Of a stretch of DNA of 64,000 nucleotides, positions 1,546-25,866 are shown in pieces. The DNA comes from a virus, in IMG/VR virus record IMGVR_UViG_3300046328_001165, positions 28,684-92,683 of that record. The stretch is one strand, 5' to 3'. The translations under genes were made by a program, and so were the position numbers. Within the stretch, counting starts at the first letter, position 1. Every line of letters starts with the position of its first letter. A model generated the notes under the pieces. It was given only the letters and a program-made list of their open reading frames with translations. It ran no database searches and was not told where the DNA came from.

Positions 1546-2001
1546 ATGGGCGATAAAGTGGATTTGAACTTGCGGTTGAAGGTGGCGACTTTTGATGGCT
1601 ATCACGATTTTCGCACTCACATGCCGCAGAACAGGATTAGCGCGAGAGAAGATGTTGGCGGTAGATTTATAGAGGTTCCCTATTACGAGCTTTCTCTTGA
1701 TGTGATCGCCGAAGCTTGCGATCGGCACAATATAGGCTTTAGTCTTAAAGGGGCTGTGGATGCTAAAGAGGGGTACGAGTATGTTGCTACCTGCACGAAT
1801 GCCGAGCCCATAAGTGGCGCTGGATCTACCAGAGCGATCGCTGTATGCCACTTATTTGTCGCTGTCATGACTGAGCGATCGCTGGAGAAGGAAAGGGCTA
1901 TGAAGCGCGATCGCCTCGGCAGGAAGATCGCCGAAGAAGCGTTAGAGATGGCTTCTCAGTGCCTTGATTTTGAGCAGGTCTATACTCCTTCGTTTTTTTG
2001 A
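1546..2001 (+). CDS. Phage ABA-sandwich-like protein
   Basis: VPYYELSLDVI...GSTRAIAVCHLFVAV; AGGAG SD before ATG 1546; paralog of next gene. Confidence 0.55.
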   Translation: MGDKVDLNLRLKVATFDGYHDFRTHMPQNRISAREDVGGRFIEVPYYELSLDVIAEACDRHNIGFSLKGAVDAKEGYEYVATCTNAEPISGAGSTRAIAVCHLFVAVMTERSLEKERAMKRDRLGRKIAEEALEMASQCLDFEQVYTPSFF

Positions 2002-2590
2002 CGCGATTGGTTTACGCAAAAAAGTTGCGGCACTGGCTGGTTGGGTTGATATTTGCCATCACTCAACAGTGGGCAGTCATGAGCTACTCGCAAAACGTCA
2101 AAAAGGTTCTGATATTTCTCAGGTTCCTCGCTATGAGGAAAGTTTTGACGCGATCGCTTCGTTACTGTCTGGGTACGGCATATTGTTTACCCTTAGCGGT
2201 ATGGAGGATATGCCCACTTTGGTGGGTAATACCCCTCCAACACTGATCTACAGAGAGATTGGGACTGAGATTGAGGGGCGTGGCAAAACAGAGGCGATCG
2301 CTCTATGCAGCCTTTTTATCGCTGTGATGAGTAGTCCTTCCGTGGAATCCATTCCTAGCGATCACTATCGAGAGTCCTCAATCAAGCAGGCGTTAATAAA
2401 GATTGGAACTCCTTTTACCCGAACTATTCTTCAGCACATAAGGGAGAAAGCCAGTTCGCAGACTAACTCTTGGGGTGGGCTTGATTGGGTTGAAGCGCAT
2501 CGGGATATATCTCGCGCTGCCGACAGGCTTGACGCGATGCTAGCCAGAAAGGAGTTGATTGAGCTTACCTTTCAAACCGAGGCAGGTTAA
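1964..2590 (+). CDS. Phage ABA-sandwich-like protein (paralog)
   Basis: LRKKVAALAGW...VPRYEESFDAI...GKTEAIALCSLFIAV aligns to the preceding ORF. Confidence 0.55.
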   Translation: MILSRSILLRFFDAIGLRKKVAALAGWVDICHHSTVGSHELLAKRQKGSDISQVPRYEESFDAIASLLSGYGILFTLSGMEDMPTLVGNTPPTLIYREIGTEIEGRGKTEAIALCSLFIAVMSSPSVESIPSDHYRESSIKQALIKIGTPFTRTILQHIREKASSQTNSWGGLDWVEAHRDISRAADRLDAMLARKELIELTFQTEAG

Positions 2591-2640
2591 TCGCTAATTT
2601 CCACAAAACTGAATAGTACTCTTGACAGAAAGAGAAAGTA

Positions 2641-4155
2641 ATGCCATTGAACCGAGTTATCGAGCCAATGGCATTTCGTTTTGATGATGTAAGTTTTGCG
2701 ACACGCACTGAGATGCGTGAGGACGGTCTGTATGCATACAGCACCGTTTGTCGTGACGGGATACTAACGTATTTCCGAGGTGACGGCAAGCGAGTCCGTG
2801 AATTGCGACCTGCTTCGGCAAACCGCGATCGCGACTTCCTTGAAGCGCTGAAAGATCTGCCGATGACCGTCGAACATCCGACCTCTTTATTAAGGGGGAA
2901 ACGAGATAGTTCTATTGGTGAGTTAACAAGGGCGGGTGAGTACAACGATTCTGAGGGGGTTGTACAGAATATTGCCCGAATCTCTAACCCCGACTTTGCT
3001 CAGTCTGTAAGGGCTGGCAAAAAGAACGGTTTGAGCCTTGGGTATGAATGCGAAATTGTTGAAGCTCCTGGCGGGGTCTGGTTCGATGCGATCGACCAGA
3101 TTACCTATAAGGGCGATTTCGATCGCGTTCAAACCAAGATTCGACCAGACCATTGCGCCGCAACCGACAACCCACGCGGGGGGAGCGATGTCAGGATGCA
3201 CCTAGACAGCGCCGATACCGATGAGGACTCAGTTGTTGGTCTAGAGCGGTTTGACTCAATCCAAGTTGACCGTCCTAGTCCGAACAGCGTTGTTGTTATT
3301 TCCACAAACAAAAATGAGGGTAGCTCCGCTATGTCCGATTTAAAGACGAAAACCTTGCGCGTGGATGGCGCTGATTATTTGGTGGAGGAAGTAGCAGCCT
3401 ACCCTCTAAGTCAAAAGCTTGCCGAACTATCCACAATTAAAGCGCGTGTAGATTCTCTTGAGGCTGAACTCAAAGAGAGGATCGATACTATTGGCGAACT
3501 CACTTCTGATGTTAACCGCGCCAAGGGTCGTGCCGACGCTCTTGAAGATGAGTTAACCGAAACACTATCCGAGCTTGAAACCGCCCGTGCCGACGGAGAA
3601 AAGATGGCTAAGGAAGACGAAGAAGGTGATGAAGATGAAGACGGCGATGAAATGCCCGACTTTATCAAGAAAAAGATGAAGAAGAAGATGAAGTCTGGCG
3701 AGAAGATGGATGCCTCTGATCTGGCAATCATCCTCGACTCTGACCAAGTTCGTGAATTTATAGCCGAAGAAATTAACAACCAGACCGCAGATCGTCTTCA
3801 CGCTATTGGCAAAGCCAATGATTTACTTTCCGCTAAGGGGGTAAAGATTGAGGACGCGGGTATCGTAACCACGATGGATTCTACCGAGATTCGTCGGGCT
3901 GCGCTCAAAGCTATCAATCCTGATAGTGATCTAAGCGATCGCAACGACAGCTACATCGAAGCTCGCTTTGATAGCGCTGTTGAGTATGCTGCTCAAGCCC
4001 CTGCTACTAGCCATGCTGATCGTCTTGAGACCGCCGTAAAAGCTGGACGCACTACTCGTGGTGATTCTGAGCAGAAGAAGGATGCAGCAGAAGCCAACAA
4101 CGAGCGCTACGGTGAGAACCACAAAAAGCCCTTAACTCGTTCTACCAAGAAATAG
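2641..4155 (+). CDS. DUF2213 prohead protease/scaffold protein
   Basis: DGLY...RDGILTY...ELRP...LPMTVEHP...GLSLGYEC...QTKIRPDHCAA..PRGG N-terminal domain, then acidic coiled-coil scaffold; upstream of capsid genes. Confidence 0.85.
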   Translation: MPLNRVIEPMAFRFDDVSFATRTEMREDGLYAYSTVCRDGILTYFRGDGKRVRELRPASANRDRDFLEALKDLPMTVEHPTSLLRGKRDSSIGELTRAGEYNDSEGVVQNIARISNPDFAQSVRAGKKNGLSLGYECEIVEAPGGVWFDAIDQITYKGDFDRVQTKIRPDHCAATDNPRGGSDVRMHLDSADTDEDSVVGLERFDSIQVDRPSPNSVVVISTNKNEGSSAMSDLKTKTLRVDGADYLVEEVAAYPLSQKLAELSTIKARVDSLEAELKERIDTIGELTSDVNRAKGRADALEDELTETLSELETARADGEKMAKEDEEGDEDEDGDEMPDFIKKKMKKKMKSGEKMDASDLAIILDSDQVREFIAEEINNQTADRLHAIGKANDLLSAKGVKIEDAGIVTTMDSTEIRRAALKAINPDSDLSDRNDSYIEARFDSAVEYAAQAPATSHADRLETAVKAGRTTRGDSEQKKDAAEANNERYGENHKKPLTRSTKK

Positions 4156-4168
4156 GAGCAACTAGAAA

Positions 4169-5041
4169 ATGCAAAAGAATTATCGCCAGTATTTTACTCA
4201 GGCTCTCGCTGGAATGGTTGAGGGTATGGGTGTCGGCTCCGTTGAAGCTTATCACAACGACAGCGGCTACACCAAGGAAGTTTGGACGGTTACAACCCCT
4301 GTAACTCCCGTAACAGCAACCCTGTATAGCATCACTTTGTATGACAAGGACACCTCTGATAGCCCTATCACCATCTCTTTCACGACCGCTTCAACCTCTC
4401 GCGCCGATCTAGCAACAGGCTTGTTTAACGCTTTCCGCGCTAACCTTCGCGCTAGTCAGATCACTTCTGTGGTTAACGGTACTTCTACCCTGACCTTTAC
4501 CCATCGCAAAGACAACACCCCAATGTTTGTCAGTGTTGGCGGCGGCGGCGCAGCTCCATTGACCGTGCCTACCACTCCAACCACCGCAGCGGCAGCGCCA
4601 ACCCGCATTCTTTTTGGTGTATTTCTCACCAAAGTTGCTGGCGTAGCTCCCCGCGTTGTGGGCAACCTGACTGGCGGCAGCATTCGCCTCCCTAATGCTG
4701 GAGATGCGATTACTGCAATTTGTGGTCTAGCTCGCTTAAACACCTCCGTTCAAAAGGATGTTGTTGGCGAATTGGCAACCGCAGGTTACGAAGCCAATCA
4801 GTTGGCGGTTGATGTTCAGCGCCGATTGGGAGATCTCTCAGGTATGTGGGTTCCTACGCTGGAAACCAGCATTCTTGAGTCCGATCCTGTCTACATCTCT
4901 GTTGCCGCTGGTTCTAAGGGCTTTGCCCAGAAGACCAATGCTAACAGCGCGATCGACGCTTCAAGCCGCGCTTTTTTCCGCTCTGATGTTGTTACAGACA
5001 TCAACAACAATCGAGTTGTTCTAGTTTACGCAAACTTCTAG
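4169..5041 (+). CDS. Capsid decoration/cement protein
   Basis: MQKNY...ALAGM start and FG...MWV...DPVY motifs; lies between DUF2213 and MCP; highly expressed codon style; Thr-rich insert. Confidence 0.7.
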   Translation: MQKNYRQYFTQALAGMVEGMGVGSVEAYHNDSGYTKEVWTVTTPVTPVTATLYSITLYDKDTSDSPITISFTTASTSRADLATGLFNAFRANLRASQITSVVNGTSTLTFTHRKDNTPMFVSVGGGGAAPLTVPTTPTTAAAAPTRILFGVFLTKVAGVAPRVVGNLTGGSIRLPNAGDAITAICGLARLNTSVQKDVVGELATAGYEANQLAVDVQRRLGDLSGMWVPTLETSILESDPVYISVAAGSKGFAQKTNANSAIDASSRAFFRSDVVTDINNNRVVLVYANF

Positions 5042-5051
5042 GAGGAGTCCA

Positions 5052-5957
5052 ATGGCTACTGAAATTAAAAACGATGACTGGTCAGTGGGCTACTTTAAAG
5101 AGCAGCTCGTTGAACTTGAGCAGACGATGGAAAAAGAAGAGTACGAAGAGCTTTATTGGGCTAATGGTACTCTCGTTCCTCGCGAGGACTGGAATAAGCC
5201 TTGGCTTGAAGAAACTGGCTACCGCAAGGTGACTGGTATCGGTCGGTGGGAAGCTGCTCGCGATTACACTACTCACGTCCCTAACGTTGAGATCGTATCG
5301 AGAGAGTTCCGCCAGCGCGTTTCCGAGCACATCGGTGGCTACACTGTTAACGACAAAGAGCTTGAGCTTTCTCAGCAATTTGGCACAGGCATTGACGCTG
5401 AGAAAGTTCAGATCGTGCTTGAGGCGGGTCAGCAATATCTCGATAAGATGGTATTCCTTGGTGATGGGCAGCTTCGTGGCTTCTTCAACCACCCTGACAC
5501 CCTGAAGTCTTATTCAGCGTATCGCTTTGACAGCAATGCTACTGTTGCTCAGATGCTGGCTGTGTTGAACGACACTGGCAACTCTATGCGTCGCTTGACT
5601 CGTAATATCGAGACCCCCGACACCATCTTGTTTGCTCAGGCTGTTCACGACGAAATCAGCTTCCGTCGTTTGTCCGACTTCAATAGCGACTCGGTTCTTG
5701 ACTATTACCTCAGTAAAGCGACTTACATCAAAGATGTAATGGCTTTACTACCTCTTGAGGGTGTTGGTGATGGTAATTCCAACGTGTCCTGCTATTACAA
5801 GCGCGACCCCAAGAAGATCAAGTTCCGCATCACCGAGCCCTTCCAATTCAAGAAGTGGATCGAACTTCCTCGCGGTATGCAGCGCACTGCTCGCATGAGG
5901 TACGGTGGATTGATCATCAAACGCCCTTACTCTGTGAACTGGGTTCACGGCATGTAA
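5052..5957 (+). CDS. Major capsid protein (DUF2184, HK97 fold)
   Basis: FLGDGQLRGFFNHP, PDTILF, RYGGLIIKRPYS motifs; GGAGG SD. Confidence 0.85.
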   Translation: MATEIKNDDWSVGYFKEQLVELEQTMEKEEYEELYWANGTLVPREDWNKPWLEETGYRKVTGIGRWEAARDYTTHVPNVEIVSREFRQRVSEHIGGYTVNDKELELSQQFGTGIDAEKVQIVLEAGQQYLDKMVFLGDGQLRGFFNHPDTLKSYSAYRFDSNATVAQMLAVLNDTGNSMRRLTRNIETPDTILFAQAVHDEISFRRLSDFNSDSVLDYYLSKATYIKDVMALLPLEGVGDGNSNVSCYYKRDPKKIKFRITEPFQFKKWIELPRGMQRTARMRYGGLIIKRPYSVNWVHGM

Positions 5958-5969
5958 ATGGCGATCGCC

Positions 5970-6006
5970 AATATCGAGTGTGGACATATCCACACTCGAT
6001 ATTTTT
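5970..6006 (+). terminator. Intrinsic terminator after MCP
   Basis: AATATCGAGTGTGGA-cata-TCCACACTCGATATT (15-bp stem) followed by T run. Confidence 0.75.
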
Positions 6007-6020
6007 GTATCTATTGAGCT

Positions 6021-6458
6021 ATGAAACAGAACCCCGATCACCTCCTCCTTAACGCGCCATTTCTGCGGAATTTTACCTACAGCGATCGCGTAATCGTCGG
6101 AACCATCGCCGACGAGTTTGATGTGGTAGTCAAAAACCACGCCGACACTATCCTTCACGCCAATCGCAATCACATTGGCGAGAGGGGCGTAATCATGTCC
6201 TGCTTTAGCGACCAATTCGGTTTGATCGCAAGGTTTATGAAGCCAGAGACACTGCGAGAACAGGCTGAGGAAGTTCAGGGCGAATCCTATGACGTACTGA
6301 CTACTTACGATCCGCTTGAGGCAATCGCAATAATGCATATCGGCTGGGACAGCCAACCCCACACCGAAGCGGTATTAATTACGAAGCTTCAAGAGTATGT
6401 AGCCAAAAGCAATACTCTGCAAAAACCGAAGTCAGACATCCTTTATTTACCCGCATAA
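6021..6458 (+). CDS. Hypothetical protein
   Basis: 145-aa ORF filling the gap after the MCP terminator. Confidence 0.65.
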   Translation: MKQNPDHLLLNAPFLRNFTYSDRVIVGTIADEFDVVVKNHADTILHANRNHIGERGVIMSCFSDQFGLIARFMKPETLREQAEEVQGESYDVLTTYDPLEAIAIMHIGWDSQPHTEAVLITKLQEYVAKSNTLQKPKSDILYLPA

Positions 6459-6469
6459 CAGAAGAAATC

Positions 6470-7078
6470 ATGCCAGAAGATATCAAAGAAACAGCACCTA
6501 AAGGGAAAGCCTCCGCAGTCGCCTTGGCGGAGCCACCAGCCCCAGAAGTTACGACTGAAGATCCAGATTCCTATGTAATTTGGCTATTTAAGCATAGCGA
6601 GCTCCGCAATGCGCCATTCTGTATTCAGTTTCCCCCCAACGATCGCGCTAGAGATATTCTTGCCGATGTTAACGTGCCAAAGGGGATGAGTTCATTGCCA
6701 TTAACAAGCGAGTGGATTAACTTTGGTCCCAACAAGCTCAAGCTTAGCGTCGTGAGAGCAATTCAGTCCCACCCAGCCAGTGCCGCTCACGTTGAGCGCC
6801 TTGTCAAAGAAGGTCTACTGCAAATCATGACTCCCGATCGCGCAGATATTGAAGGCATCTCTAACGACACTGCAATGTCGATCCATTTCACCGAAGAAAA
6901 GGCGATCGCGTTGGTTAACGCCTCTTACGATAAGGCTGAGCTGGAACTTTGGAACAGCCGCGAATCCTCTGCCCGTCCCAACGTCTCTCGCTCGATCACA
7001 GCAAGACTCAAGGCGATAAGAGAAGATGAGGAGGAAAGCCTCCGCAGTGCTGAACGCGCTCACGTAGATACGGTCTAA
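6470..7078 (+). CDS. Hypothetical head-module protein
   Basis: 202-aa ORF; C-terminal helical motif typical of the gene between MCP and adaptor. Confidence 0.65.
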   Translation: MPEDIKETAPKGKASAVALAEPPAPEVTTEDPDSYVIWLFKHSELRNAPFCIQFPPNDRARDILADVNVPKGMSSLPLTSEWINFGPNKLKLSVVRAIQSHPASAAHVERLVKEGLLQIMTPDRADIEGISNDTAMSIHFTEEKAIALVNASYDKAELELWNSRESSARPNVSRSITARLKAIREDEEESLRSAERAHVDTV

Positions 7079-7082
7079 ATAC

Positions 7083-7502
7083 ATGGCAACATTCCCCGTC
7101 GTTACCTCAGACACCTTTACCTCCGACGCTACGTTTTCGGATTTTATTGGTGAGTCACCAACCTTTATCCAGAGTTGGCTAAACGTTTATTCGCGTTTCT
7201 GCTCGATCGAAGAGTGGGGTGATAATGCGGAAATGGCGGTAATGTTGCTGACCGCCCACTATTTAGCTCTAAACACTGAAGAAGGTACGGTCACGATTTC
7301 CAATGCCAAGGCGATCGATACTGGCGAGTCTATGTCGAATAGACGGACTTCAACCCCCGCCAACAGTAACGGCAAATTCTCCGATGTCTATCTATCGCGA
7401 ACTACCTATGGGCAGCAACTCTTGATGATCAAGGAATTGATATTGTCGGGTGGTTTTATGGGTGACAGTATCCCTGCCGTGCCGCCGTTTATTGCTTTCT
7501 AG
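7083..7502 (+). CDS. DUF4054 head-tail adaptor
   Basis: WG...LLTAHYLAL...YLSRTTYGQQLL signature. Confidence 0.75.
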   Translation: MATFPVVTSDTFTSDATFSDFIGESPTFIQSWLNVYSRFCSIEEWGDNAEMAVMLLTAHYLALNTEEGTVTISNAKAIDTGESMSNRRTSTPANSNGKFSDVYLSRTTYGQQLLMIKELILSGGFMGDSIPAVPPFIAF

Positions 7503-7530
7503 CCTCATGTACCACGAGTACAATGAGATC

Positions 7531-7562
7531 AAAAGCCCTAGAGAATCTTCTCTAGGGCTTTT
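7531..7562. terminator. Bidirectional intrinsic terminator
   Basis: AAAAGCCCTAGAGAA...TTCTCTAGGGCTTTT between convergent genes. Confidence 0.75.
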
Positions 7563-7592
7563 GCGATAGATTATACTGCGGCAATATCTTCT

Positions 7593-8069
7593 CTAGCCAA
7601 AGATTTCCTTTCTCCTTTCTTTGCTCAGGGACATCACCTCTTTGCGCGATACGTCTTTCCCTGTGGCGACAGACTTGGCGATTGCGCCTACAACCTTTAT
7701 GTCGTCCGTAACTGCGGTAGCAGATCTCTTGACTACATTTTTAGCGGCTCTCGCCACACTGCCAACACCACTTTTGACTTCACCTAAGTTCTGCTTTCTC
7801 TCTTGGCTTAAATCGTTAGTTCTACCTCCAAGTAATCTGAGATCGTCTTTTACCGCCTCAGCGGATCTCCCTACCACTTTTTTTTACGGCAGAGCCAAGA
7901 CCACCAGATCCTACCTTACACTTTTCAAGCATAGGTATACAGCGCGAACCACAGGGTTTATTGCCAATCTTGCATTTTGGTGCGTCCTCCCTTTTTTTTT
8001 TATCGAAGCCTCTGCATCTATACGCACTTGGAACTGGGAGATCGCGTATTTAACACTAGAATTAGACAC
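7593..8069 (-). pseudogene. Frameshifted member of the RxD/Cys4 modular family
   Basis: GAGGA SD plus GTG 8069; correcting A10 (7992-8001) and A8 (7878-7885) by one base each yields ...KREDAPKCKIGNKPCGSRCIPMLEKCKVG...VVGRSAEAVKDD. Confidence 0.7.
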
Positions 8070-8208: not shown

Positions 8209-8613
8209 GTGCCGAACAATATCGTTATGTCGCTAGCTAACAAGATCACCACGAAACTTCAAGGATTGCGCGATCGCCTCGCAGGAGGTGCGATCGGTGC
8301 GCCTAATGTGTTGCCATTGACAGTTGTGACTCGCACCGCATCGGGTGAAACCAGTCTTGAAATCTTGCCGCATCCCACGATTCTGCGGGTAAACCCTAAA
8401 ACTGTAGCCCTGTTTGAAAGTACCAATATCAAGGTTGGTGTTGACGATTTTCAGATCAGCGGTATATCTGCGGCGTACACCGAGGCTCAGCTTACGGGCA
8501 AGGGTAAATATTACATCGTTGATGGGCGAATCAAGTGCAACGAGGTGATGGGCACTATCGAGAATAAGAGTTTTTCTTGGGAAATTATTTTGACGAGGAT
8601 GCCAAACAGATGA
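8209..8613 (+). CDS. Putative head-closure/head-tail joining protein
   Basis: 134 aa, beta-rich, near the adaptor gene; positional inference. Confidence 0.5.
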   Translation: MPNNIVMSLANKITTKLQGLRDRLAGGAIGAPNVLPLTVVTRTASGETSLEILPHPTILRVNPKTVALFESTNIKVGVDDFQISGISAAYTEAQLTGKGKYYIVDGRIKCNEVMGTIENKSFSWEIILTRMPNR

Positions 8614-9023
8614 ACACCATTTACGCAAGAATTGACACTCTTATTGACCAGCTCCGCGAAGATGCAAAGTGCGGATCGGGCAGTAAATCCTGCGGCAAGG
8701 TCTGCATCCCCCAAGAGAAGAATTGCTTAGGCGAAACAGCAAAAGCTTTTGGTGGTGGTGCGGCTCAAGCCCTTGCGGGTCCACTTGGCAGTGGCACTTA
8801 TCGGGCGTTGAGATCGCAGGGTCGTAGTCGAAGGACTTCTATTGCGGGTGCGATCGGAGCGAATGTAGCCGCTTCTGTGGGCAGTGTAGCTCTCGCTTCT
8901 TATGCGATGAACAAGGCTAAAGAAGGGCTTCGAGATCCTGTTAACAAGGGTGTAAGTCTTGGCAAAGGTATAACCAAGATGGCTGACAAAGATTTCGAGA
9001 AAGCCAAGAAAAAGGGTAAGTAA
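8610..9023 (+). CDS. RxD/Cys4 modular protein (putative internal head protein)
   Basis: ATGA overlap at 8610; MNTIYARIDTLIDQLREDAKCGSGSKSCGKVCIPQEKNC plus Gly/Ala helices. Confidence 0.7.
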   Translation: MNTIYARIDTLIDQLREDAKCGSGSKSCGKVCIPQEKNCLGETAKAFGGGAAQALAGPLGSGTYRALRSQGRSRRTSIAGAIGANVAASVGSVALASYAMNKAKEGLRDPVNKGVSLGKGITKMADKDFEKAKKKGK

Positions 9024-9025
9024 TT

Positions 9026-10870
9026 ATGTACGAGATCGCATCTCTATCAAAGGTAGTCCGCCACGATGTCCAAACAGAGGTTAAGGTTCCAGCGCAGAAC
9101 GGACGTAAGGCTTACTCGTATTTTCGCAATGCTAGCGCAGTTAAGAAAGGCGCTGCGGGTGTTGGCGCAGCTCTTGCTATTGGCGGACTGACTGCGGCGG
9201 CGATCGCGCTCAGGAAGAAGTCAGAAGAGTCAAATGCTTTGCCAGCACCAGTTGGGGTTCTCACTCCTATCGTTGCACCTCAATCCACTGCAAGTCGAGC
9301 TGGTGAGTTCGCCAAGAAAGCGGCGATCAAGGCTGGTAGGGTCGCAGGCGGAGCAGTCCTTAATGCTGCGGGAGCCGTAGTTATTGGTCAGGTCTCTGGA
9401 CGTGTTATCAAGGAAGCAGTAAAAGACAGAAGATCTCCTGAGCAAAAAGCGGCAGCTTGGAAGCAAAAGGAGGAAGAAGAAAGAGAAGGGAGGGAAGCTC
9501 GATACGCCGCGTTTTTGCAATCAGATCCTAGGGCTACGGCGAAAGATAATATTGAATATCAAGAGGGGATGGCTCAGAGGGTCGTCGAAAGAGTTCGAGG
9601 CGAGGAGCTAGCGCCCCTCATTGAGCAGGATGTATCAAAATATCTCAAAGAAGTGGAAGTGGCGGAAAAAGATCTTCTAAGCAAGATGTCTAGACCCGAT
9701 CGCCTGCCACCACCAAAGCCAAGACTAGAGGTTGGCGGAGCATTAGCCCCTGTCAACCAACCTCAAACCACTACACCCCCTATTCCAGATCGATTGCCAT
9801 ACAATCCTCGCGCACCCAAGGTGTCTACTAGCGGACTAACTTTTGCTGCAAGCGAACCTTCGGCACAACCTCAAAAACCCAAATTCGTCCAAGTTGCTGG
9901 TCAGGCTGGCGCTGCTTTGGGGCGCTTATATCGGCAAAGTAAAGAGCGGGATCGTATGGCTAGAGAAAATCTGGCGAATAATACCGTAGATCTTAATAAA
10001 GTCGCTGAAGGTGTAGGTCGAGGCGCTAGGTCTGTGTTGAGTGCTGTTGAGGGGTTCGCCCGTAAAGCCAAGCAAAGAGTTTCTGAAGATATCCAAACAA
10101 TTGACATAAAAGCCGAAGAGGTAAAAGAGTCGAAGGCATCTGAGGATCTCAAGGGAGTTCAGACCAACGCGCTTCCCGAAGGTGGCAAGAGAAAACCTGG
10201 TCGCCCGAAGACCAAGTTTACGCCTAAAGATTTTATTAGCCCAGACAGTAAACGGGCGAGAAACAACTCCATTTATATGCGTATTGACAGCTTTGTTGAT
10301 CGGCTCCGCAAGGATACCCAAATCGAAGTCAAAGTCCCAGCGCAGAACGGGCGCAAGGCTTACTCGTATTTCCGCGAAGGCAATGAAGGCGAGGTGGGTT
10401 CTCCACGGATACCCTCCCGCAAAATTGTAGCGGGTGTTGGAGGCGCGATTGCGGCGGCTGGGTTGGCTGGATTAGCAGCGATCGCACTGAGAAACAGATC
10501 GGAAGCGATGAAGACTGTTGCGCCCGATGCGAAGCCTAAAAAAGCGATTGATATCAAAAAAGATATTGTTATCCCTTCAGTGATTGGGGCGAGTAAAATC
10601 GTTTTAACCGCAGAACTGGTGAAAGGTCTTAATGGTGTGGTATCTAAAGTTAGGGGAGTTAAACCCTCGGTGAAGGAAGAGTCGAAGACTGTTCCCGATC
10701 TGAAAGCCCCCAAGCCCGATCCTAGTGGCAAGGAAACGATTACGCCCGAAGAATCGGCAAAAGTAGATCCAGTAGTGGAAGTACCCTCCTTACCCGCCGA
10801 GCCAGAAGAGTCGAAGGTAGTTGCTCCAAAACGAGGAAGGAAGCCTCGCGCTGTCAAGCAGGCTTCGTAA
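9026..10870 (+). CDS. RxD/KAYSY two-module protein
   Basis: Two copies of RxD.Q.EVKVPAQNGRKAYSYFR, each followed by a hydrophobic Gly/Ala helix; low-complexity basic linkers. Confidence 0.75.
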   Translation: MYEIASLSKVVRHDVQTEVKVPAQNGRKAYSYFRNASAVKKGAAGVGAALAIGGLTAAAIALRKKSEESNALPAPVGVLTPIVAPQSTASRAGEFAKKAAIKAGRVAGGAVLNAAGAVVIGQVSGRVIKEAVKDRRSPEQKAAAWKQKEEEEREGREARYAAFLQSDPRATAKDNIEYQEGMAQRVVERVRGEELAPLIEQDVSKYLKEVEVAEKDLLSKMSRPDRLPPPKPRLEVGGALAPVNQPQTTTPPIPDRLPYNPRAPKVSTSGLTFAASEPSAQPQKPKFVQVAGQAGAALGRLYRQSKERDRMARENLANNTVDLNKVAEGVGRGARSVLSAVEGFARKAKQRVSEDIQTIDIKAEEVKESKASEDLKGVQTNALPEGGKRKPGRPKTKFTPKDFISPDSKRARNNSIYMRIDSFVDRLRKDTQIEVKVPAQNGRKAYSYFREGNEGEVGSPRIPSRKIVAGVGGAIAAAGLAGLAAIALRNRSEAMKTVAPDAKPKKAIDIKKDIVIPSVIGASKIVLTAELVKGLNGVVSKVRGVKPSVKEESKTVPDLKAPKPDPSGKETITPEESAKVDPVVEVPSLPAEPEESKVVAPKRGRKPRAVKQAS

Positions 10871-10897
10871 TCACAGAAAAATGGCAGACAGGTAATC

Positions 10898-13525
10898 ATG
10901 TACGCGATCGCACCAACACCAGTAATTCAAAACGCAGATCCACTCGCAGCCAGAAAGATAATCGCGAGAATATTAACTCGCATAATTTCTCGCGCTTACG
11001 GAAGCATCGACCAAATCGTTAGTATCGACATTGCTGATGATGGTCTGATTACCTGTCTATTTCGTGACGACGACAAAGATCGAAAGTTAATTCGATTAGT
11101 GTTAGGCGATCGCGCTGAATACAGACAAATTCTTGATGGGCGTAATGATTCGCTAAATATCGATACAGATCAGTATTTAGTCGCGTATGCCAATAGTATT
11201 GGTCAGCGTACCGACAAGGTATCTAAACCGAATAACTGCAAAATAGGTACATCCTGTAAGGGCGCTTGCATCTCTAAGACCGATGTTTGTCGTGTCGATG
11301 TACCAGAGGTTTTGAATAGGCAGGAGATTTCCGATCTGAATGACGCGGTAAACGACGTTCAGAGGGCAAAATTTGTTGGTGTTGCGCCAGTTTCGGACGA
11401 ACTTGATAGCAAGAATATTCGCGAATTGAAGGATGAAGCCCGTAAAAGGGGCGTGTACCGCTATTCGTACATGAATCAATCTCAGTTGCGAGAGTCTATT
11501 CGTTTGCAACAGGCTAATCCCGAACGCCAAAATATTGTGCGAGAAGGGCTAAGCCGTAATGCGGCGAGTAAGAAAGCGCTCAAAAGCTTACTGCCTCAGC
11601 CTGTGGCTGGAGCATGGAAAGACATTGAGAAAATCAGTAAATTCTTTGGCGACAATCGCCCTGCGGCAGGAGTATTGGCGGCAAGCGTATTGCTAGGTAT
11701 TCCATCGTCGGTAATGCTTTCAGCTCGCGATCGCTACAAAGAAGGCTTACCCGAATCGGCACTAATGGCATATCAAAGATCGCAAACCACCCCCGTAGAG
11801 CCAACTAGCAAACCTCAAATCACTTTTGCTGTAGGTGGGTTCTCTAATCTCGGATCTTCGGGCAGTAAAGTTGCTGAATACTTGAAGACACCTTTAGACA
11901 CATCGAAGCGCGAGCAGTGGTTTAACAAGACCCAAGAAATCATCGCCTTTGATAGTCCTGAATTTAATGTTCCTCCTACAAAAATCGACAAAAAAGACAA
12001 GGATGGTAAATACAATCCGTTGTACTTGGGGTATGTTGCCAAGGAAAGTTTTGGTAAATATCTAAGCAATGTTGTAGGCGGCAGAAATGAAGCTGCTGTA
12101 GACTTGGCTTCCAAGTTATATGCTTATGGCTCCAAGTACCGTAACAAACCTTTAAACGTCGTTAGCTATGGTTCTGGTGGCAATGTAATCGACGAAGCTG
12201 CGGAAATCGTTAGCCGCATCAAGCCAGAAAAGGGGCTTGATGGCAGGGAGATCTTAAAGCGGCTAAATATTGCCAGACTTGGCGGAGCCTCTTTTGGTTT
12301 AACTGGTGGCACAACTCAAGACGAAAAGAACTGGGCAAGTATTAATAACCGTACTATCACGTCAAAAAACGATCCGTTTTCGATCCTACCCAAGAGGTTC
12401 TCTCAATTTGTTAGCTCTGTAAAGGGTGGTGAGATTGAGGATTACCTGACGAATAGCGATGCTAGAGACAAGATTCGTGAGGTGTTTGGCTTCTTCTCCA
12501 ACTCTGCTGCGGGAAGTAAGATAACCAATGAAGCGAGTGACGAGATCAAGAAATCCTTGAAGGATGTAGCTAAGACGATCAATCCAAAGCTCGGAAAGTT
12601 GGCGAACCTGATTGACGGCATCTCGTCGAAATACTCAAACAACCCCGTAGCGGCGGCGATCGATACTGCTGGGGCTTTAGCTGTCACGGGTGTTGCCGTG
12701 GTCGCTAAGTCCAAGCTTAATTACAAAGAGAATCTTGGCAACTCGGCAAGCAAAGCTCAGGAGATGGTTTCTAGTGGGCAGGTCTCCCCCATCTCCATTT
12801 CCAAGCCCAACGTTATTATCACTGTCGGAGATGCCGAGATAGATGGCGATGAGATGAAGAGAAAAATCGAAGGCGCAAAACAAAGCTCTGGGCGGGGGTT
12901 GGTAGCGAATAACTACCTAAATAACAGTGAAGTAATTGCATTTGACAGACCTTTTCTAACACCGCCCTCAAGGAATAAATTTATGGCTCCTGTAGATCTA
13001 ATGGCAAAGACCTATGAAGCTGTTATGAATAGAACGCTAGCAGCGGGTACAGATCCAGAAGCCATTCGACTGGCTGCAAATATTTACGCGATCGCAAACA
13101 CCCCCTACGCGGGTACTGCTAACTCCTATCCGTCTGTCTCCGTCGTGGGACTGAAGCAGGGTGGCGAAACAACGAAAAGGGCTTTGGATATTTTGGAAAA
13201 AATGACCAAGGTTCAGGTTGGGGCAAAGGCAGATCCCAATATAGTTGGTGGAAGATCTGTTTCCTCTGGTCAGGTGCATATCATCACGTTAGGAACCCCT
13301 GAACTCGATTTCGGGGGTAAAGGCGCAAACGCCGCTAGAAATGATTTATGGGTAGATGGGGACATATTTGGGCAAACACCTTTAAAAGGGTCTGCCCCAT
13401 CGTACATCTCTACACAAGGTAATGGCAGTGCTAGTGATTACCTTGAAGCTCCTGTGGTTGCGGATCTATTGGGCAAGCTATCCTCAACCTCGTTTGCGAG
13501 AGCGAAGAAAAATAGGAGGCAGTAA
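10898..13525 (+). CDS. RxD/Cys4 protein with Rho_N-like domain and two degenerate alpha/beta-hydrolase-like domains
   Basis: CKIGTSCKGACISKTDVC; KNIRELKDEARKRGVYRYSYMNQSQLRESI; LNVVSYGSGG...IARLGG...SKNDP and VSVVGLKQGG...IITLGTP...VDGD. Confidence 0.65.
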   Translation: MYAIAPTPVIQNADPLAARKIIARILTRIISRAYGSIDQIVSIDIADDGLITCLFRDDDKDRKLIRLVLGDRAEYRQILDGRNDSLNIDTDQYLVAYANSIGQRTDKVSKPNNCKIGTSCKGACISKTDVCRVDVPEVLNRQEISDLNDAVNDVQRAKFVGVAPVSDELDSKNIRELKDEARKRGVYRYSYMNQSQLRESIRLQQANPERQNIVREGLSRNAASKKALKSLLPQPVAGAWKDIEKISKFFGDNRPAAGVLAASVLLGIPSSVMLSARDRYKEGLPESALMAYQRSQTTPVEPTSKPQITFAVGGFSNLGSSGSKVAEYLKTPLDTSKREQWFNKTQEIIAFDSPEFNVPPTKIDKKDKDGKYNPLYLGYVAKESFGKYLSNVVGGRNEAAVDLASKLYAYGSKYRNKPLNVVSYGSGGNVIDEAAEIVSRIKPEKGLDGREILKRLNIARLGGASFGLTGGTTQDEKNWASINNRTITSKNDPFSILPKRFSQFVSSVKGGEIEDYLTNSDARDKIREVFGFFSNSAAGSKITNEASDEIKKSLKDVAKTINPKLGKLANLIDGISSKYSNNPVAAAIDTAGALAVTGVAVVAKSKLNYKENLGNSASKAQEMVSSGQVSPISISKPNVIITVGDAEIDGDEMKRKIEGAKQSSGRGLVANNYLNNSEVIAFDRPFLTPPSRNKFMAPVDLMAKTYEAVMNRTLAAGTDPEAIRLAANIYAIANTPYAGTANSYPSVSVVGLKQGGETTKRALDILEKMTKVQVGAKADPNIVGGRSVSSGQVHIITLGTPELDFGGKGANAARNDLWVDGDIFGQTPLKGSAPSYISTQGNGSASDYLEAPVVADLLGKLSSTSFARAKKNRRQ

Positions 13526-13983
13526 TGAAATTAGATACCAAAATCAAGGTTGACGTGCCAGCAGCGCAAGGGCGAAAAGCGTACAGCTACGCTTTAGCTC
13601 TTAAAAGCCTAAAGCGACGCGAAAAAAGGGCTCAGTCTAATTCAGACTCAAGCAGATTAGACACAACATGCGATCGCGGCAAACCATGCCAAGGCGAAGA
13701 CGGACAAACTTACTGCATCCCCCAAGGGGCTACCTGCGGTAAAGGCAAGGTCGGCAGAATCATCAAAGGTGTTGCTGGCGCGGTTGGTCGCGGCGTGATT
13801 ACTGGCTTAACTGCCGCCGCGATCGCCAAACTTGCTAGCAAGGGTAAGGCTGGGTTGAAAGAGGATTTTAATACGGCGAAGATCATTTTTAATGCGGGTC
13901 GCACCACTGGCAAGATTGAGTCCAAGGTGGCGAATGGGGTCAAAGCTGTTAGTCGGATAATTAAGAACCGAGGTAAGAAATGA
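13525..13983 (+). CDS. KAYSY plus RxD/Cys4 modular protein
   Basis: KLDTKIKVDVPAAQGRKAYSY and RLDTTCDRGKPC...CIPQGATC plus Gly/Ala helix; TAATG coupling. Confidence 0.7.
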   Translation: MKLDTKIKVDVPAAQGRKAYSYALALKSLKRREKRAQSNSDSSRLDTTCDRGKPCQGEDGQTYCIPQGATCGKGKVGRIIKGVAGAVGRGVITGLTAAAIAKLASKGKAGLKEDFNTAKIIFNAGRTTGKIESKVANGVKAVSRIIKNRGKK

Positions 13984-15095
13984 CAAGAGATTTAGCGGAC
14001 GACCTAGCCTACCTTGAGGGGCAGATATCCGTGGCTCTACGCCATGATGCTGGCAGAAAGCTCAAATGTAAAGAAGGCTACGTTCAGCGCGGGAATGCCT
14101 GCCAAAAAGTCACTAAGAAGGCTTCTGGAGGTAATCTCGCGAGGAGTATTGGTACGGGCTTGGGTGTTGCGGCTTTAGCTGGAGGTGCGGCGGCTGGAGT
14201 GGCGATCGCGTCAAGACGGGGCAGTCAATCAGGCAATTCGCCTGTAAGCAAACCAGATACTTTGCCTGCAAAAATCGAGACGGTTTCCTCGGCTTTACTC
14301 CCCAAAAGAAGAGAATTGATCGCGTATAAAGCGTCAAAGGTGCTCTCAGATAAGCGGGTTCGCAAAGCGGCGATCGCGGCAGGTAGTACTGGAGCTGTAA
14401 TTGCAACAGTTGTCGGAATAGGCAGTGTAAAGCTAACCAAAGATTATGCGGTTAAAGACATTGCATTGATAATGACCTACAAGCAGAGCTTGATACTAGG
14501 GAAAGCCGCAGATCGCATCCTAGATAAATCCGATATAAACCCAGACTTAAAAGGTAAGGCTAAGGACTTGATTGGTATGACCAAATTAGCCTTGGCTAGA
14601 AAAACTATGTCCGTCAAGGGTCGCGACCTTATCGATGTGGATAAGGAGTCAAACAGCTTTACATATAGAGACAGAAAGAATGGAGGGATTTATACAGTAG
14701 CTTCTGTTGGTCCAGCCTTGTATACCTTTACCAGCGTGTTTAAAAAAGAGGTTTCCGCAGGGAAAGTTTACGAGGTTTCTTTTGCTATAAACGAATCCAA
14801 CAATAGGGAAGAATCAGCGAATCTTGGGGCTTCAGGAGCTAAGCAAATTATAAGATTAACAAGACAGTCTTTCGACAAGCATGTTGAAGCCGTGCCCGAC
14901 AATGTAATTCTAACCGCAGGTGCTTACGACAAAGATGGTGCAGGAAAAAAGCGTAAAAACATCTATGAGAATGTCGGTTTTGCCCCTATGGAGGGTCAAG
15001 ATCCTATGGTCTTGTACGCAGCAAAGAAGGATGGAAAACTTCAGCCGCTGTCGAGTGTCTACAGCGTGAAGAAACCCCCAGAAGCTAAGACTTAA
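13980..15095 (+). CDS. RxD/Cys protein with C-terminal GNAT-like domain
   Basis: RHDAGRKLKCKEGYVQRGNAC; hydrophobic helices; C-terminal YEVSF...KRKNIYENVGF. Confidence 0.55.
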   Translation: MTRDLADDLAYLEGQISVALRHDAGRKLKCKEGYVQRGNACQKVTKKASGGNLARSIGTGLGVAALAGGAAAGVAIASRRGSQSGNSPVSKPDTLPAKIETVSSALLPKRRELIAYKASKVLSDKRVRKAAIAAGSTGAVIATVVGIGSVKLTKDYAVKDIALIMTYKQSLILGKAADRILDKSDINPDLKGKAKDLIGMTKLALARKTMSVKGRDLIDVDKESNSFTYRDRKNGGIYTVASVGPALYTFTSVFKKEVSAGKVYEVSFAINESNNREESANLGASGAKQIIRLTRQSFDKHVEAVPDNVILTAGAYDKDGAGKKRKNIYENVGFAPMEGQDPMVLYAAKKDGKLQPLSSVYSVKKPPEAKT

Positions 15096-15103
15096 TCATG
15101 AGG

Positions 15104-15132
15104 TTTATAACAGGCGATGATCGCGCTATAAT
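15104..15132 (+). promoter_or_regulatory. Sigma70-type promoter of moron gene
   Basis: TTTATA-N17-TATAAT, with the -10 box 21 nt upstream of ATG 15154. Confidence 0.55.
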
Positions 15133-15153
15133 GCCACAAAACTATGTAAAGCG

Positions 15154-15498
15154 ATGAGAAAGATCTTAATCGGATTAACGGGTGGATTGGCAGCTATTAT
15201 AGTTTTCAACCACATTCGCGCTGACCTTGCAGCCTCAGCCATACACAAGGAATACAAGCGATGTGAAACAGGCTATAAGCTTCTAGGTAAAAAGGAGCGC
15301 TTTTTAAAAAATCTTGCAGAATCAGGCGAGAGTCAGGAAAAACATGCATCCACAATAAAAAGCATGGATGAGGTGGAGGATAGTTGTGCAAAATACAGTA
15401 AATACTTCGGCGAGTGGGGCGAAGGGAGAATCAAGCCATCAGACAATCTGGTATGGGCGTTATTGTCGCGATATGAGCCAGAAAAATTAAAGCAGTAG
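15154..15498 (+). CDS. Membrane-anchored moron protein (superinfection-exclusion candidate)
   Basis: N-terminal TM MRKILIGLTGGLAAIIVF; AT-rich; own promoter and downstream hairpin; directly before the TMP gene. Confidence 0.6.
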   Translation: MRKILIGLTGGLAAIIVFNHIRADLAASAIHKEYKRCETGYKLLGKKERFLKNLAESGESQEKHASTIKSMDEVEDSCAKYSKYFGEWGEGRIKPSDNLVWALLSRYEPEKLKQ

Positions 15499-15504
15499 TG
15501 AACA

Positions 15505-15548
15505 CCATAAAAATAACTGAGAAGAATATTTCTCGGTTATTTTTATGG
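15505..15548 (+). terminator. Hairpin/terminator overlapping the TMP start codon
   Basis: CCATAAAAATAACTGAGAA-gaatat-TTCTCGGTTATTTTTATGG (19-bp stem, one G-U). Confidence 0.6.
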
Positions 15549-24316: not shown

Positions 24317-24349
24317 GGGGCGATTCCTGATTTCGCAACAATCAAACAT

Positions 24350-24391
24350 CAAAAAGGCGATTGCACCTTAAATAAAGCGATCGCCTTTTTG
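24350..24391 (+). terminator. Intrinsic terminator after TMP
   Basis: CAAAAAGGCGATTGC...GCGATCGCCTTTTTG. Confidence 0.6.
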
Positions 24392-24399
24392 GTGCGCCA

Positions 24400-25851
24400 A
24401 TGATATCCCTCCTGCAATTCGACAACTTCGCGATCGCGCCAGATGGTATTCAGTTTGGCGAGGCGGAGTCAAGGGAATTTACCAAACAAGGCGAAACCAA
24501 TCTTCAGAAGTTCAGGGCTTACCGCCCAAATATCGGAATAACCATTACTGGGGTTACGGATTCTGATGTTGTCTTTTATCAGTCCGCAGTAGAGGCGGGT
24601 TCTGATTTCCGTGAGATCATTTCTTATGGCGGTCGCGGCTTGACGGGTTGCCGCTTAATCTCGGCAGAGGTATCAAATATATTGCAAGTTGGCGACATCC
24701 AATTAGTTGATACTCTTAGACTTCTTTACGAGAGCAATACATGGACGCATGGGGTCGCTTTTGAAAGGTTTAAGGGCTTTGTTGTTGACTTGGATGGTAT
24801 TCAGTTCGGCGATGGCGATTCAATTAGTGTTCAATACGCGGATTCGGGCGTGGTTCGTACCGCTATTGTTAAACGTCGAAAAGTGGGAATCACTTTAAAA
24901 GGTACTTCTCCATCCGACTATCAGACATTCCTCAGCTTGCTTAACAGCGATCTGCTAAACCCCCTGACCGAGGATATTACTCTGGGTGGTATCACCTTAA
25001 ACGATGCAGTATTAACGTCGGTAACGCCAACCGCATCAATTACCACAGGTTTAGGAGAGATTAGTGACTCATTGGTGCTTGAATACGAGACTAGGAATTA
25101 TGATGTCCCATTCTCTCAGGGGACTTTCGATGGCTTCCCGATCGCGAATATTAATGTTAGCGCTGACACAAAGATATTTGTAATCAATCAGTCGGGTTCA
25201 GGGCGGCGAGATGTTCCGACATTTAAGCGGAAGATATCTTTCTCAGTCATTGGTACTCCAGCGGAGTATGCGGTTGGCTATATAAGCAAGGTTGAAAATG
25301 TTGCCGACGCGCTCAATCCTGAGATTATCTCGCTGACAGTTGCGGGTTACACGATTGCTTCAGCGATTCTTGTTAATGTCACCCCGTCGGAGACTGTGGC
25401 CGTAGGTGGAAGGGAGATACGGGCATCAACGCAGCTAGAGTTTATTAGTAGGTACTGGTCTTACGATCTGACTGGCGAAGGAGAAGCCAATTTCTTTGAT
25501 GGATATGAAGTTGACTCGTTTTCGCTTAACGATGTTGACGGTCAACAGGTTTTACTTAATCGCAACGGTGTTCAGTCGCAGGTCGCCATAGCTCGCCAGT
25601 CTGCAACTATAGGGCTGGCAGGTGTTAAGGTTAGCGATGTTGTTTTGTGGAGATCCGCAGCCGCTGCATCGAGGAGAAATCTAGTTAATGGCTCTTCCCC
25701 TGACCTGAGATCTGTGGGTTTACTTGGGGTAGCACTGGATAGCTGCTACCTTATTAGCGCCGTGCCTTCGGGTAAAGAATACCTTGTTGGGACGGAGAAG
25801 CTCGTTGACTCAATAACCCTGATCTACGAAACTCTTGAATGGAACTACTAA
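24400..25851 (+). CDS. Distal-tail/tube-like protein with four tandem ~120-aa domains
   Basis: Repeat ends LLYESNTW / LEYETRNY / LEFISRYW / LIYETLEW; first gene after TMP. Confidence 0.6.
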   Translation: MISLLQFDNFAIAPDGIQFGEAESREFTKQGETNLQKFRAYRPNIGITITGVTDSDVVFYQSAVEAGSDFREIISYGGRGLTGCRLISAEVSNILQVGDIQLVDTLRLLYESNTWTHGVAFERFKGFVVDLDGIQFGDGDSISVQYADSGVVRTAIVKRRKVGITLKGTSPSDYQTFLSLLNSDLLNPLTEDITLGGITLNDAVLTSVTPTASITTGLGEISDSLVLEYETRNYDVPFSQGTFDGFPIANINVSADTKIFVINQSGSGRRDVPTFKRKISFSVIGTPAEYAVGYISKVENVADALNPEIISLTVAGYTIASAILVNVTPSETVAVGGREIRASTQLEFISRYWSYDLTGEGEANFFDGYEVDSFSLNDVDGQQVLLNRNGVQSQVAIARQSATIGLAGVKVSDVVLWRSAAAASRRNLVNGSSPDLRSVGLLGVALDSCYLISAVPSGKEYLVGTEKLVDSITLIYETLEWNY

Positions 25852-25866
25852 ATTCAGATCGGAATC

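Follow-up and report, generated by a model that had tools for sequence, protein, structure and literature searches.

The locus described here raises the question of whether a short tripeptide, Arg-x-Asp (R-x-D), which recurs throughout one cyanophage head protein, marks the positions where a maturation protease cuts. The DNA analysed is a stretch of 64,000 nucleotides (the window; positions 28,684 to 92,683 of IMG/VR record IMGVR_UViG_3300046328_001165), which forms the last 64 kb of one 92,683-bp phage genome record (92.7 kb); the remaining 28.7 kb is called the rest of the genome, and its open reading frames (ORFs) were scanned too. The protein is the product of ORF 2641-4155, a DUF2213 protease joined to a scaffold. 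We found that the R-x-D motif in this protein is real and far above chance, and we consider it quite likely that the motifs are cleavage sites of the protease itself.

2641 to 4155, plus strand: protease-scaffold fusion gene, 504 aa (PF09979 DUF2213, phrog_530, full-length homologues)

The R-x-D motif in the protein and in its family

Pfam PF09979 (DUF2213) is recognised in residues 30-186 of the protein, where the alignment takes in positions 9-164 of the 167-position profile and scores 44.6 bits (gathering cut-off 22; E 2e-11). The match to PHROG 530, "head maturation protease", is full-length (residues 9-499, E 1.5e-46), and full-length homologues range from 85% down to 31% identity. The first-pass annotation had counted at least 12 R-x-D tripeptides in the 504 residues, and the translation contains exactly the 13 tetrapeptides it listed: RFDD13, REDG26, RGDG46, RPDH168, RFDS203, RVDG240, RVDS269, RIDT280, RADA297, RADG316, RNDS434, RFDS442 and RGDS473. 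Its other observations on this ORF held as well. The variants HLDS187, KMDA355, ILDS and TMDS411 are all present, S, A, G or T follows the motif in 11/13 cases, and sites flank the protease domain, with RFDD13 before the DUF2213 domain and HLDS187 and RFDS203 just after it.

In a protein with 11% Asp and 8% Arg, such an excess could be ascribed to composition, to chance or to the post-hoc choice of a motif. In 20,000 shuffles, R-x-D was expected 4.25 +/- 1.9 times against the 13 observed (p about 1e-4), and the form followed by S, A, G or T, expected 1.26 times and observed 11 times, was reached by no shuffle (Poisson 9e-8). R-x-E, K-x-E and D-x-R were unenriched in this ORF against the same shuffles. 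Shuffles confined to blocks of 20, 30 or 50 residues gave the same result for R-x-D, and local composition is therefore not the cause of the excess. When 1,596 gapped residue pairs were scanned blindly, R-x-D came first, DS second and R-x-x-S eighth. The single-protein p of the pair is 4.8e-4 among these 1,596 tests, which fails Bonferroni correction and favours the chance explanation; because this value is too weak, we rely instead on the four-residue motif and the family-wide result. The comparison of head proteins with others that the first-pass annotation had proposed gave a clear outcome: R-x-D was strongly enriched in ORF 2641-4155 only, and no other ORF in the window or in the remaining 28.7 kb, including those for other charged proteins, was comparably enriched. 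With R-x-D also the top pair in 149 family representatives, the explanation by chance or composition is refuted by the shuffles and the family-wide scan, and we give it practically no weight.

The DUF2213 proteases of phages form a very large family: it comprises more than 3,000 clusters at 50% identity, and an exhaustive HMMER search with a cut-off of E 1e-3 returned 3,018 cluster representatives. Across 188 family proteins, R-x-D occurred 1,669 times against 526 expected and R-x-E 368 times against 498, and 99% of the members lay above expectation for R-x-D. A similar picture emerged from the scaffold tails alone, for which everything behind the protease domain was taken from 149 representatives sharing at most 50% identity. 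R-x-D was the most enriched of about 1,500 pairs there (767 vs 210), and block shuffles yielded 203 +/- 14 with a maximum of 241, so that the observed count lies 40 standard deviations above. At P3, before x-D, Arg was enriched 3.65-fold, His 1.96-fold and Lys 1.63-fold. R-x-E was depleted (0.53-fold), which points to Asp and not Glu at P1. The P1' residue was Ser in 27%, Ala in 31% and Gly in 11% of the cases (69% for the three), and after R-x-D, Glu was enriched 1.9-fold at P3' and 1.8-fold at P4'. The same blind scan applied to T4 gp22 as a positive control returned L-x-E as the top pair, with 16 [LI]-x-E against 5.7 expected. In the protease-scaffolds of T1, TLS and Rogue1, [RK]-x-D[SAG] occurred 11-12 times against about 1.2 expected, and PaV-LD ORF071 had 15 R-x-D against 4.1 expected.

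Protease fold, capsid protein and candidate cut sites

The AlphaFold2 model of the protein was built on 144 sequences and has a mean predicted local distance difference test score (pLDDT) of 82.6. It consists of a confident beta-rich domain (residues 21-190), a disordered linker (193-235), a hairpin (236-249), a 74-residue helix (250-323), a disordered acidic/basic stretch (324-339) and more helices to residue 493. The top Foldseek matches of the model were herpesvirus assemblins and T4 gp21. By VIA-align, the predicted model was superposed on T4 gp21 (5jbl_A) with Z 10.5 and a root mean square deviation of 2.7 A over 129/165 residues; herpesvirus assemblins gave Z 6-7, and the next unrelated rows (MlaD) gave Z about 6. 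The domain and the residues of interest are as follows.

2701 to 3210, plus strand: protease domain, residues 21-190, predicted assemblin or T4 gp21-like fold (AlphaFold2 pLDDT above 90; VIA-align; Foldseek)
2800 to 2802, plus strand: Glu54 (RELRP), candidate S3 subsite residue selecting Arg or Lys at P3 (co-variation)
2875 to 2877, plus strand: His79, presumed catalytic (EHP motif; invariant in 144 members)
3034 to 3036, plus strand: Ser132, presumed catalytic (SLGY motif; invariant in 144 members)
3151 to 3153, plus strand: His171 (invariant in 144 members)

The spacing between His and Ser is 53 residues here and 55 in T4 gp21 (His85, Ser140), and a T1-like homologue has been described with a catalytic Ser121 (bioRxiv 10.1101/2023.05.21.541620). 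Herpesvirus assemblins have a Ser-His-His triad (PMC4498786), and by analogy His171 is possibly the third member of such a triad. Arg179 is also invariant in the family, and we infer that an invariant Arg (R179 or R56) lines the S1 pocket. T4 gp21 cuts after Glu in L/I-x-E, and an acidic P1 would thus be in character for the assemblin/gp21 fold.

A further indication of where such a protease cuts comes from the major capsid protein (MCP), two genes downstream. It begins with MATEIKNDD, as the first-pass annotation had read it, and in the profile comparison it was matched to solved capsid proteins of T1 and related phages (E 1e-127).

5052 to 5957, plus strand: MCP, PF09950 / DUF2184 type (PF09950 E 3.6e-24; phrog_264)
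5067 to 5075, plus strand: MCP K6-N7-D8, predicted maturation cut between D8 and D9, 8-residue propeptide (spacing to the G-(I/Y)-(W/F) anchor as in TLS and T1)

The mature TLS MCP has the Edman N-terminus ASDMGIW (PMC11447400). In the TLS gene product (L002:3586-4560) this sequence starts at residue 28, directly after K25-N26-D27; hence the propeptide comprises 27 residues and ends in K-N-D. The TLS authors inferred a removal of 45 residues (PMC11447400), for which the Edman sequence gives no support. The window sequence K-N-D-D-W-S-V-G-Y-F and the TLS sequence K-N-D-A-S-D-M-G-I-W have an equal distance from the motif to the Gly-aromatic anchor. The cryo-electron microscopy model of the T1 MCP spans residues 27 to 319 (PMC11945409), and residue 27 is an Ala directly after K24-Q25-D26. 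The [RK]-x-D of the MCP is conserved in the relatives P0189-P0192, CL131, PaV-LD and S-CBS4, whose N-termini include (an arrow marks the predicted cut) RMD↓EYTLGAF, ...EIRMD↓APTIGAF in CL131, ...TTRLD↓ADEIGTF in PaV-LD and RMD↓EAGLF in S-CBS4. In 11/11 examined MCPs from phages whose protease has Glu54, [RK]-x-D lies 3-5 residues before the G-x-(W/F) anchor. A cleavage motif was not stated in the TLS, T1, Rogue1 or CBASS (cyclic oligonucleotide-based antiphage signalling system) papers, and the proteomics papers on Rogue1 and AHP24 give no exact MCP N-terminus. The P1 paper was set aside as a precedent, as it concerns an HK97-type protease cutting E↓S.

The Asp-P1 specificity (R-x-D↓small) suggested by the first-pass annotation is thus supported from several sides. 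The family-wide enrichment and the S/A/G preference at P1' agree with it at the level of sequence, the motif stands at the mapped mature MCP N-termini of TLS and T1, whose proteases are homologous, the predicted fold appears closest to T4 gp21, an acidic-P1 protease, and the P3 residue of the motif changes together with residue 54 of the DUF2213 protease.

The candidate sites were compared in a 16-sequence clade alignment and in the 144-member family alignment.

2677 to 2685, plus strand: R13-F-D15, N-terminal site, disordered stretch ahead of the protease domain (pLDDT below 50; family: basic 94%, Asp 96%)
3199 to 3207, plus strand: H187-L-D189 (↓S190), end of the protease domain (family: Asp 99%, basic P3 84%, small P1' 88%; low-confidence linker after)
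3247 to 3255, plus strand: R203-F-D205 (↓S), disordered linker (R203 and D205 invariant in the clade; pLDDT below 50)
3358 to 3366, plus strand: R240-V-D242 (↓G), beta-hairpin turn at the scaffold start (R240 invariant in the clade; family: Asp 83%, small P1' 81%)
3445 to 3453, plus strand: R269-V-D271 (↓S), clade-specific, long helix (translation, clade alignment)
3478 to 3486, plus strand: R280-I-D282 (↓T), window sequence only, long helix (translation, clade alignment)
3529 to 3537, plus strand: R297-A-D299 (↓A), family-wide GRxDxLE site, long helix (family: basic 90%, Asp 92%, small P1' 76%)
3586 to 3594, plus strand: R316-A-D318 (↓G), near the end of the long helix (R316 and D318 invariant in the clade amid a poorly conserved stretch)
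3703 to 3711, plus strand: K355-M-D357 (↓A), loop after the acidic/basic disordered stretch (near-invariant in the clade; family: Asp 69%)
3940 to 3948, plus strand: R434-N-D436 (↓S), loop before the conserved SDxYIxARFD helix (family: basic 71%, Asp 60%)
3964 to 3972, plus strand: R442-F-D444 (↓S), ARFD(S/A) motif (invariant in the clade; family: Asp 78%)
4057 to 4065, plus strand: R473-G-D475 (↓S), C-terminal disordered loop (D475 and S476 invariant in the clade; pLDDT below 50)

The scaffold is poorly conserved in the clade alignment, and its invariant residues are largely those of the motif (R203/D205, R240, R316/D318, R442/D444, D475/S476). With a mean column identity of 15% in the scaffold, R13/D15, D189, R297/D299, R316/D318, R442/D444 and D475/S476 are among the invariant or near-invariant positions. 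Sites 13, 187, 240, 297, 434, 442 and 473 are positionally conserved across the 144 members, and ARFD(S/A) is the most conserved element in the C-terminal part of the scaffold. H187-L-D189 is a candidate for the cut that separates protease from scaffold. Sites 26, 46 and 168 lie in the folded protease domain of the model and are probably structural turns, not substrates. The position of the first site depends on the start of the gene, which is ambiguous. The codon equivalent to Met10 (2668) is the first residue of most homologues (MAFRFDD) and may be the true start. An AG-rich stretch lies upstream of ATG 2641, and only a weak GAG precedes ATG 2668; with Met10 as the start, R-F-D would occupy residues 4-6 and match the family consensus MxxxRxD.

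We propose that the gene product is a serine protease for capsid maturation, which has the assemblin/T4 gp21 fold and is fused to its own helical scaffold. The recognition site of this protease would be R-x-D, with Asp at P1, a basic residue at P3, a small residue (usually Ser, Ala or Gly) at P1' and the cut after Asp. The fusion protein would co-assemble with the capsid protein, and the protease would be activated after procapsid assembly, by analogy with T4 and the assemblins. It might then release itself from the scaffold at HLD↓S (189/190) and RFD↓S (205/206) in the disordered linker. Cutting at about a dozen sites would turn the scaffold into peptides of roughly 10-80 residues able to exit the shell, and the MCP would be trimmed by eight residues (MATEIKND↓DWSVGYF).

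Residue 54, known systems and rival explanations

The basic-x-Asp rule is not universal in DUF2213, because PB1 and Pam3 lack the excess (R-x-D 1 vs 1.5 expected in PB1 and 5 vs 6.1 in the Pam3 scaffold), and this led us to a split in the family. Seven DUF2213 proteins were motif-negative, namely those of Pam3, Acinetobacter Silvergun, Vibrio 1.016.O, ZF40, RHEph04, Faunus and PB1. In the protease-domain alignment, the column of residue 54 separates the groups perfectly, with Glu in 7/7 motif-positive and Val in 7/7 motif-negative proteins. Glu54 is present in 142/144 sequences of the family alignment, and the single member with Gln54 has 1 [RK]-x-D against 4.2 expected. IMG/VR supplied 80 Val54-type loci, 29 of them non-redundant. 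In the 29 Val54 scaffolds, [RK]-x-D stood at 0.93 times expectation, L-x-D at 2.0 times and D-A at 1.8 times. All Val54 MCPs (n=24) start with x-x-D↓A, in one case D↓S, 5-8 residues before the anchor. Their P3 residue is F/I/L/M/V in 18, Thr in 5 and Asn in 1, and it is basic in 0/24, whereas the same MCP site in Glu54-type phages has a basic P3 in 11/11. Since Glu54 goes with basic-x-Asp and Val54 with hydrophobic-x-Asp, Asp at P1 looks family-wide, and residue 54 may help to set P3. Glu54 is presumed to line the S3 pocket.

The T1-like coliphages are among the closest known systems. T1, TLS (gp33, "capsid maturation protease"), Rogue1 (gp19) and BASEL Bas04-Bas13 have proteases of the same PF09979 family, with the same N-terminal protease and C-terminal helical scaffold in one polypeptide (our model here; bioRxiv 10.1101/2023.05.21.541620 for T1-like phages, in which the fusion was already published). 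They share the gene order to a PF09950 MCP, Glu54 and the [RK]-x-D[SAG] excess. However, identity is 25-29% and confined to the first 55% of the protein, P3 is Lys in T1-like phages and Arg in the window clade, the MCP propeptide has 26-27 residues there against a predicted 8 here, and the window scaffold is about 130 residues longer, with an acidic/basic low-complexity insert. Planktothrix phage PaV-LD (ORF071) and Aphanizomenon phage CL131 (gp038) have homologues in the same gene order, for which we did not find processing data. Several labels in this group mislead: PaV-LD ORF071 (L011:2080-3603) is named "capsid protein" and the T1 gene (L001:3986-5098) "putative major head subunit precursor", and both are DUF2213 protease-scaffolds. 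CL131 gp038 is annotated as "DUF2213 domain-containing protein". The Val54-type proteins (Pam3 gp5, Pseudomonas PB1/Pa193 gp24, Rhizobium RHEph04, Pectobacterium ZF40) belong to the same family and have the same architecture, and their scaffolds are enriched for Asp with Ala or Ser directly after it, which also occurs at the MCP N-terminus. They differ in having no [RK]-x-D excess, with a hydrophobic residue or Thr at P3, and PB1 has no clear motif. PB1 gp22 (L009:5172-6569), the homologue of Pa193 gp24 (PDB 9b40), also belongs with the DUF2213 protease-scaffolds by homology (profile E 3.7e-6). In Pa193, the "putative scaffolding protein" leaves a fragment bound in the mature capsid, and the paper does not mention a protease (PMC11456595).

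Outside the family, T4 gp21 (MEROPS S77) has the closest solved fold, and the systems have in common an acidic P1, a short x-x-acid motif and a scaffold, gp22 in T4, peppered with the protease motif. In T4, the scaffold is degraded to small peptides, and the capsid protein and packaged internal proteins lose N-terminal propeptides. In jumbo phages, propeptides are likewise removed from capsid and packaged proteins (PMC10052503). The systems differ in that T4 has Glu at P1, Leu or Ile at P3 and separate genes for protease and scaffold, whereas here we find Asp, Arg or Lys, and one polypeptide. Herpesvirus assemblin (UL26 / UL80, MEROPS S21) shares the fold, the N-terminal protease fused to a scaffold and the self-release at defined sites, and the invariant His/Ser/His of the window protein is compatible with its Ser-His-His triad. 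Assemblin cuts Ala↓Ser at two sites, unlike the window protein with about a dozen predicted Asp↓small sites. The ICP1 scaffold ORF124 (L012:13639-14700, minus strand) was rejected as a family member, being undetected by the DUF2213 domain hidden Markov model. It has been reported split into fragments of about 23 and 17 kDa (PMC10945586). Its single [RK]-x-D (K204-V-D206) would give 23.4 and 16.0 kDa, which we treat as a coincidence-level match.

If the motifs were not cut, R-x-D(S/A/G) could be a structural or assembly element, which would either N-cap helices with a charged pair or provide recurring contacts to the MCP or portal. The Glu excess at P3' and P4' resembles an S-x-x-E capping box, several sites stand at helix starts (D436, D481) or inside helices in the model, and ARFD and SDxYI have the look of a conserved docking element. 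The Pa193 homologue also leaves a fragment in the mature capsid (PMC11456595). On the other hand, Arg and Asp at i and i+2 are not at the spacing of a helical salt bridge, and R-x-E is depleted (0.53-fold, as given above) although it is electrostatically equivalent. The motif is found at the mapped MCP N-termini of T1 and TLS, which are not scaffold helices, as well as in disordered linkers, and its P3 residue switches with a residue of the protease. We therefore regard this explanation as unlikely. It is less probable still, in our judgement only a slight chance, that the sites are cut by another protease of host or phage, with the DUF2213 domain inactive or of other specificity. Enzymology of DUF2213 was not found in the literature searched, and the unrelated ICP1 scaffold is cut in E. 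coli and its cutting is blocked by protease inhibitors (PMC10945586), which would favour such an agent. Against it, no other protease was seen in the head module by Pfam and PHROG scans, the motif tracks the DUF2213 gene across hosts from E. coli to filamentous cyanobacteria, His79, Ser132 and His171 are invariant, and the preference at P3 changes along with a residue inside the DUF2213 domain.

Some points weigh against the proposal that the protease cuts at R-x-D. For the window phage and its close relatives, cleavage and the choice of sites are deduced. A comparison of the 144-sequence profile with the T4 gp21 sequence by hhalign detected no similarity, and the link to gp21 is hence structural only, through a predicted model. 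Part of the family-wide excess reflects a few homologous conserved positions, which are not independent events. Cleavage is uncertain at sites 26, 46 and 168, inside the folded protease domain, and at sites 269, 280, 297 and 316, inside the confidently predicted long helix. The P1' residue is Asp and not small at R13-F-D15 and at the MCP site of the window. The removal of 45 residues given by the TLS authors disagrees with their own Edman sequence, and the start of the T1 model at residue 27 could reflect disorder, not cleavage. As for residue 54, the Val54 loci were retrieved with a pattern that requires Val at this position, and the contrast with Glu54 may rest on two or three deep clades only.

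Neighbouring genes, the putative cargo cassette and significance

The gene between the protease-scaffold and the MCP lies outside the motif system and probably encodes a capsid cement protein.

4169 to 5041, plus strand: probable cement or decoration protein, 290 aa (phrog_33525 E 3.4e-32; gene position; no R-x-D followed by S, A, G or T)

Its product matches phrog_33525 only (function unknown), and its position between protease and MCP is that of the cement gene in T1 (gp49/gp48), TLS and Pam3; the order of the three genes is also that of these phages. Its N-terminus QALAGMVEGM resembles the N-loops of T1 gp49 (AIALPGMVAD) and Pam3 gp6 (AFAYEGMVSD). Among cultured phages, the cyanophages CL131 and PaV-LD are nearest, with an MCP identity of 33%. 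A megablast of window 2000-8000 against phage records gave no match, and a locus search with the clade alignment found four close relatives only.

The first-pass annotation had also suggested that the motif is shared with a putative cargo cassette at 8577-15498 (plus strand). This held in part. There was no overall enrichment of the motif in the cassette, but 6 of about 7 genes carry [RK]-x-D near the N-terminus (first 50 residues), and the site is kept in homologues; the proportion among all ORFs is 29%, and the pattern was tested post hoc. Examples of the leaders are ...LRED↓AKCGSGSKSC, ...VVRHD↓VQTEVKVPAQNGRKAYSY and ...SVALRHD↓AGRKLKC. R21, D23 and A24 are invariant in homologues of the 13980-15095 product (42-57% identity); since the whole leader is conserved, the motif is not singled out. 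Similar leaders occur in CL131 gp044 (...EARAD↓FQNKVLKC) and PaV-LD ORF078 (...LYRVD↓E). The R-x-D leaders are followed by a Cys-rich module (CGSGSKSCGKVC, KCKEGYVQRGNAC) or by a VKVPAQNGRKAYSY module, and then by a hydrophobic helix. Genes with such leaders are also present at genome positions 22927-26022, before the window. Two leaders, DLAYLEGQISVALRHD↓A of the 13980 gene and QEYIDAALEVKLRYD↓A of the gene at genome position 22927, are similar to the conserved scaffold element SYIEARFD↓S in the arrangement Y-I/L-E/D ... R-x-D; the regions compared in the window are 13980-14050 and 3940-3990. This likeness hints at a shared docking-plus-cleavage signal, and the cassette proteins are possibly packaged into the head with cleavable targeting leaders of the T4/phiKZ type. 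After the putative cargo genes there is a single ORF of 2,923 aa at 15545-24316 (plus strand), presumably a giant tape measure or virion protein; its R-x-D count is unenriched (5 vs 6.5 expected).

Taken together, DUF2213 may be a family of capsid maturation proteases with Asp at P1 throughout, in which the choice of Glu54 or Val54 sets P3 and the substrates have co-evolved, while the same motif frees the capsid-targeting leaders of a packaged cassette. We put this combined reading forward tentatively and do not count on it. Motif-directed head maturation is textbook knowledge for T4 (L/I-x-Glu) and for jumbo phages (A/S/G-x-Glu). Asp at P1 with a basic P3 would add a variant to this known scheme, and the Glu54/Val54 split would be new. 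A cleavage rule for the DUF2213 family is unstated in the searchable literature, with subscription papers, such as the 2004 T1 genome paper, outside the search.

The DUF2213 family takes in the T1-like coliphages, many cyanophages and therapeutic Pseudomonas phages. If the basic-x-Asp↓small rule is true, it predicts the mature N-termini of capsid proteins, scaffolds and possibly packaged proteins in thousands of phage genomes, and it would correct the annotations of PaV-LD ORF071 and the T1 gene and the 45-residue propeptide of TLS. The enzyme would also join, as an Asp-specific serine protease, the short list of proteases with Asp at P1 (caspases, granzyme B). The scaffold domains of T1-like phages trigger CBASS immunity (bioRxiv 10.1101/2023.05.21.541620), so the identity of the fragments left after maturation bears on work on CBASS. 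With the Glu54/Val54 switch, the joint evolution of a viral protease and its substrates can be tested at one residue.

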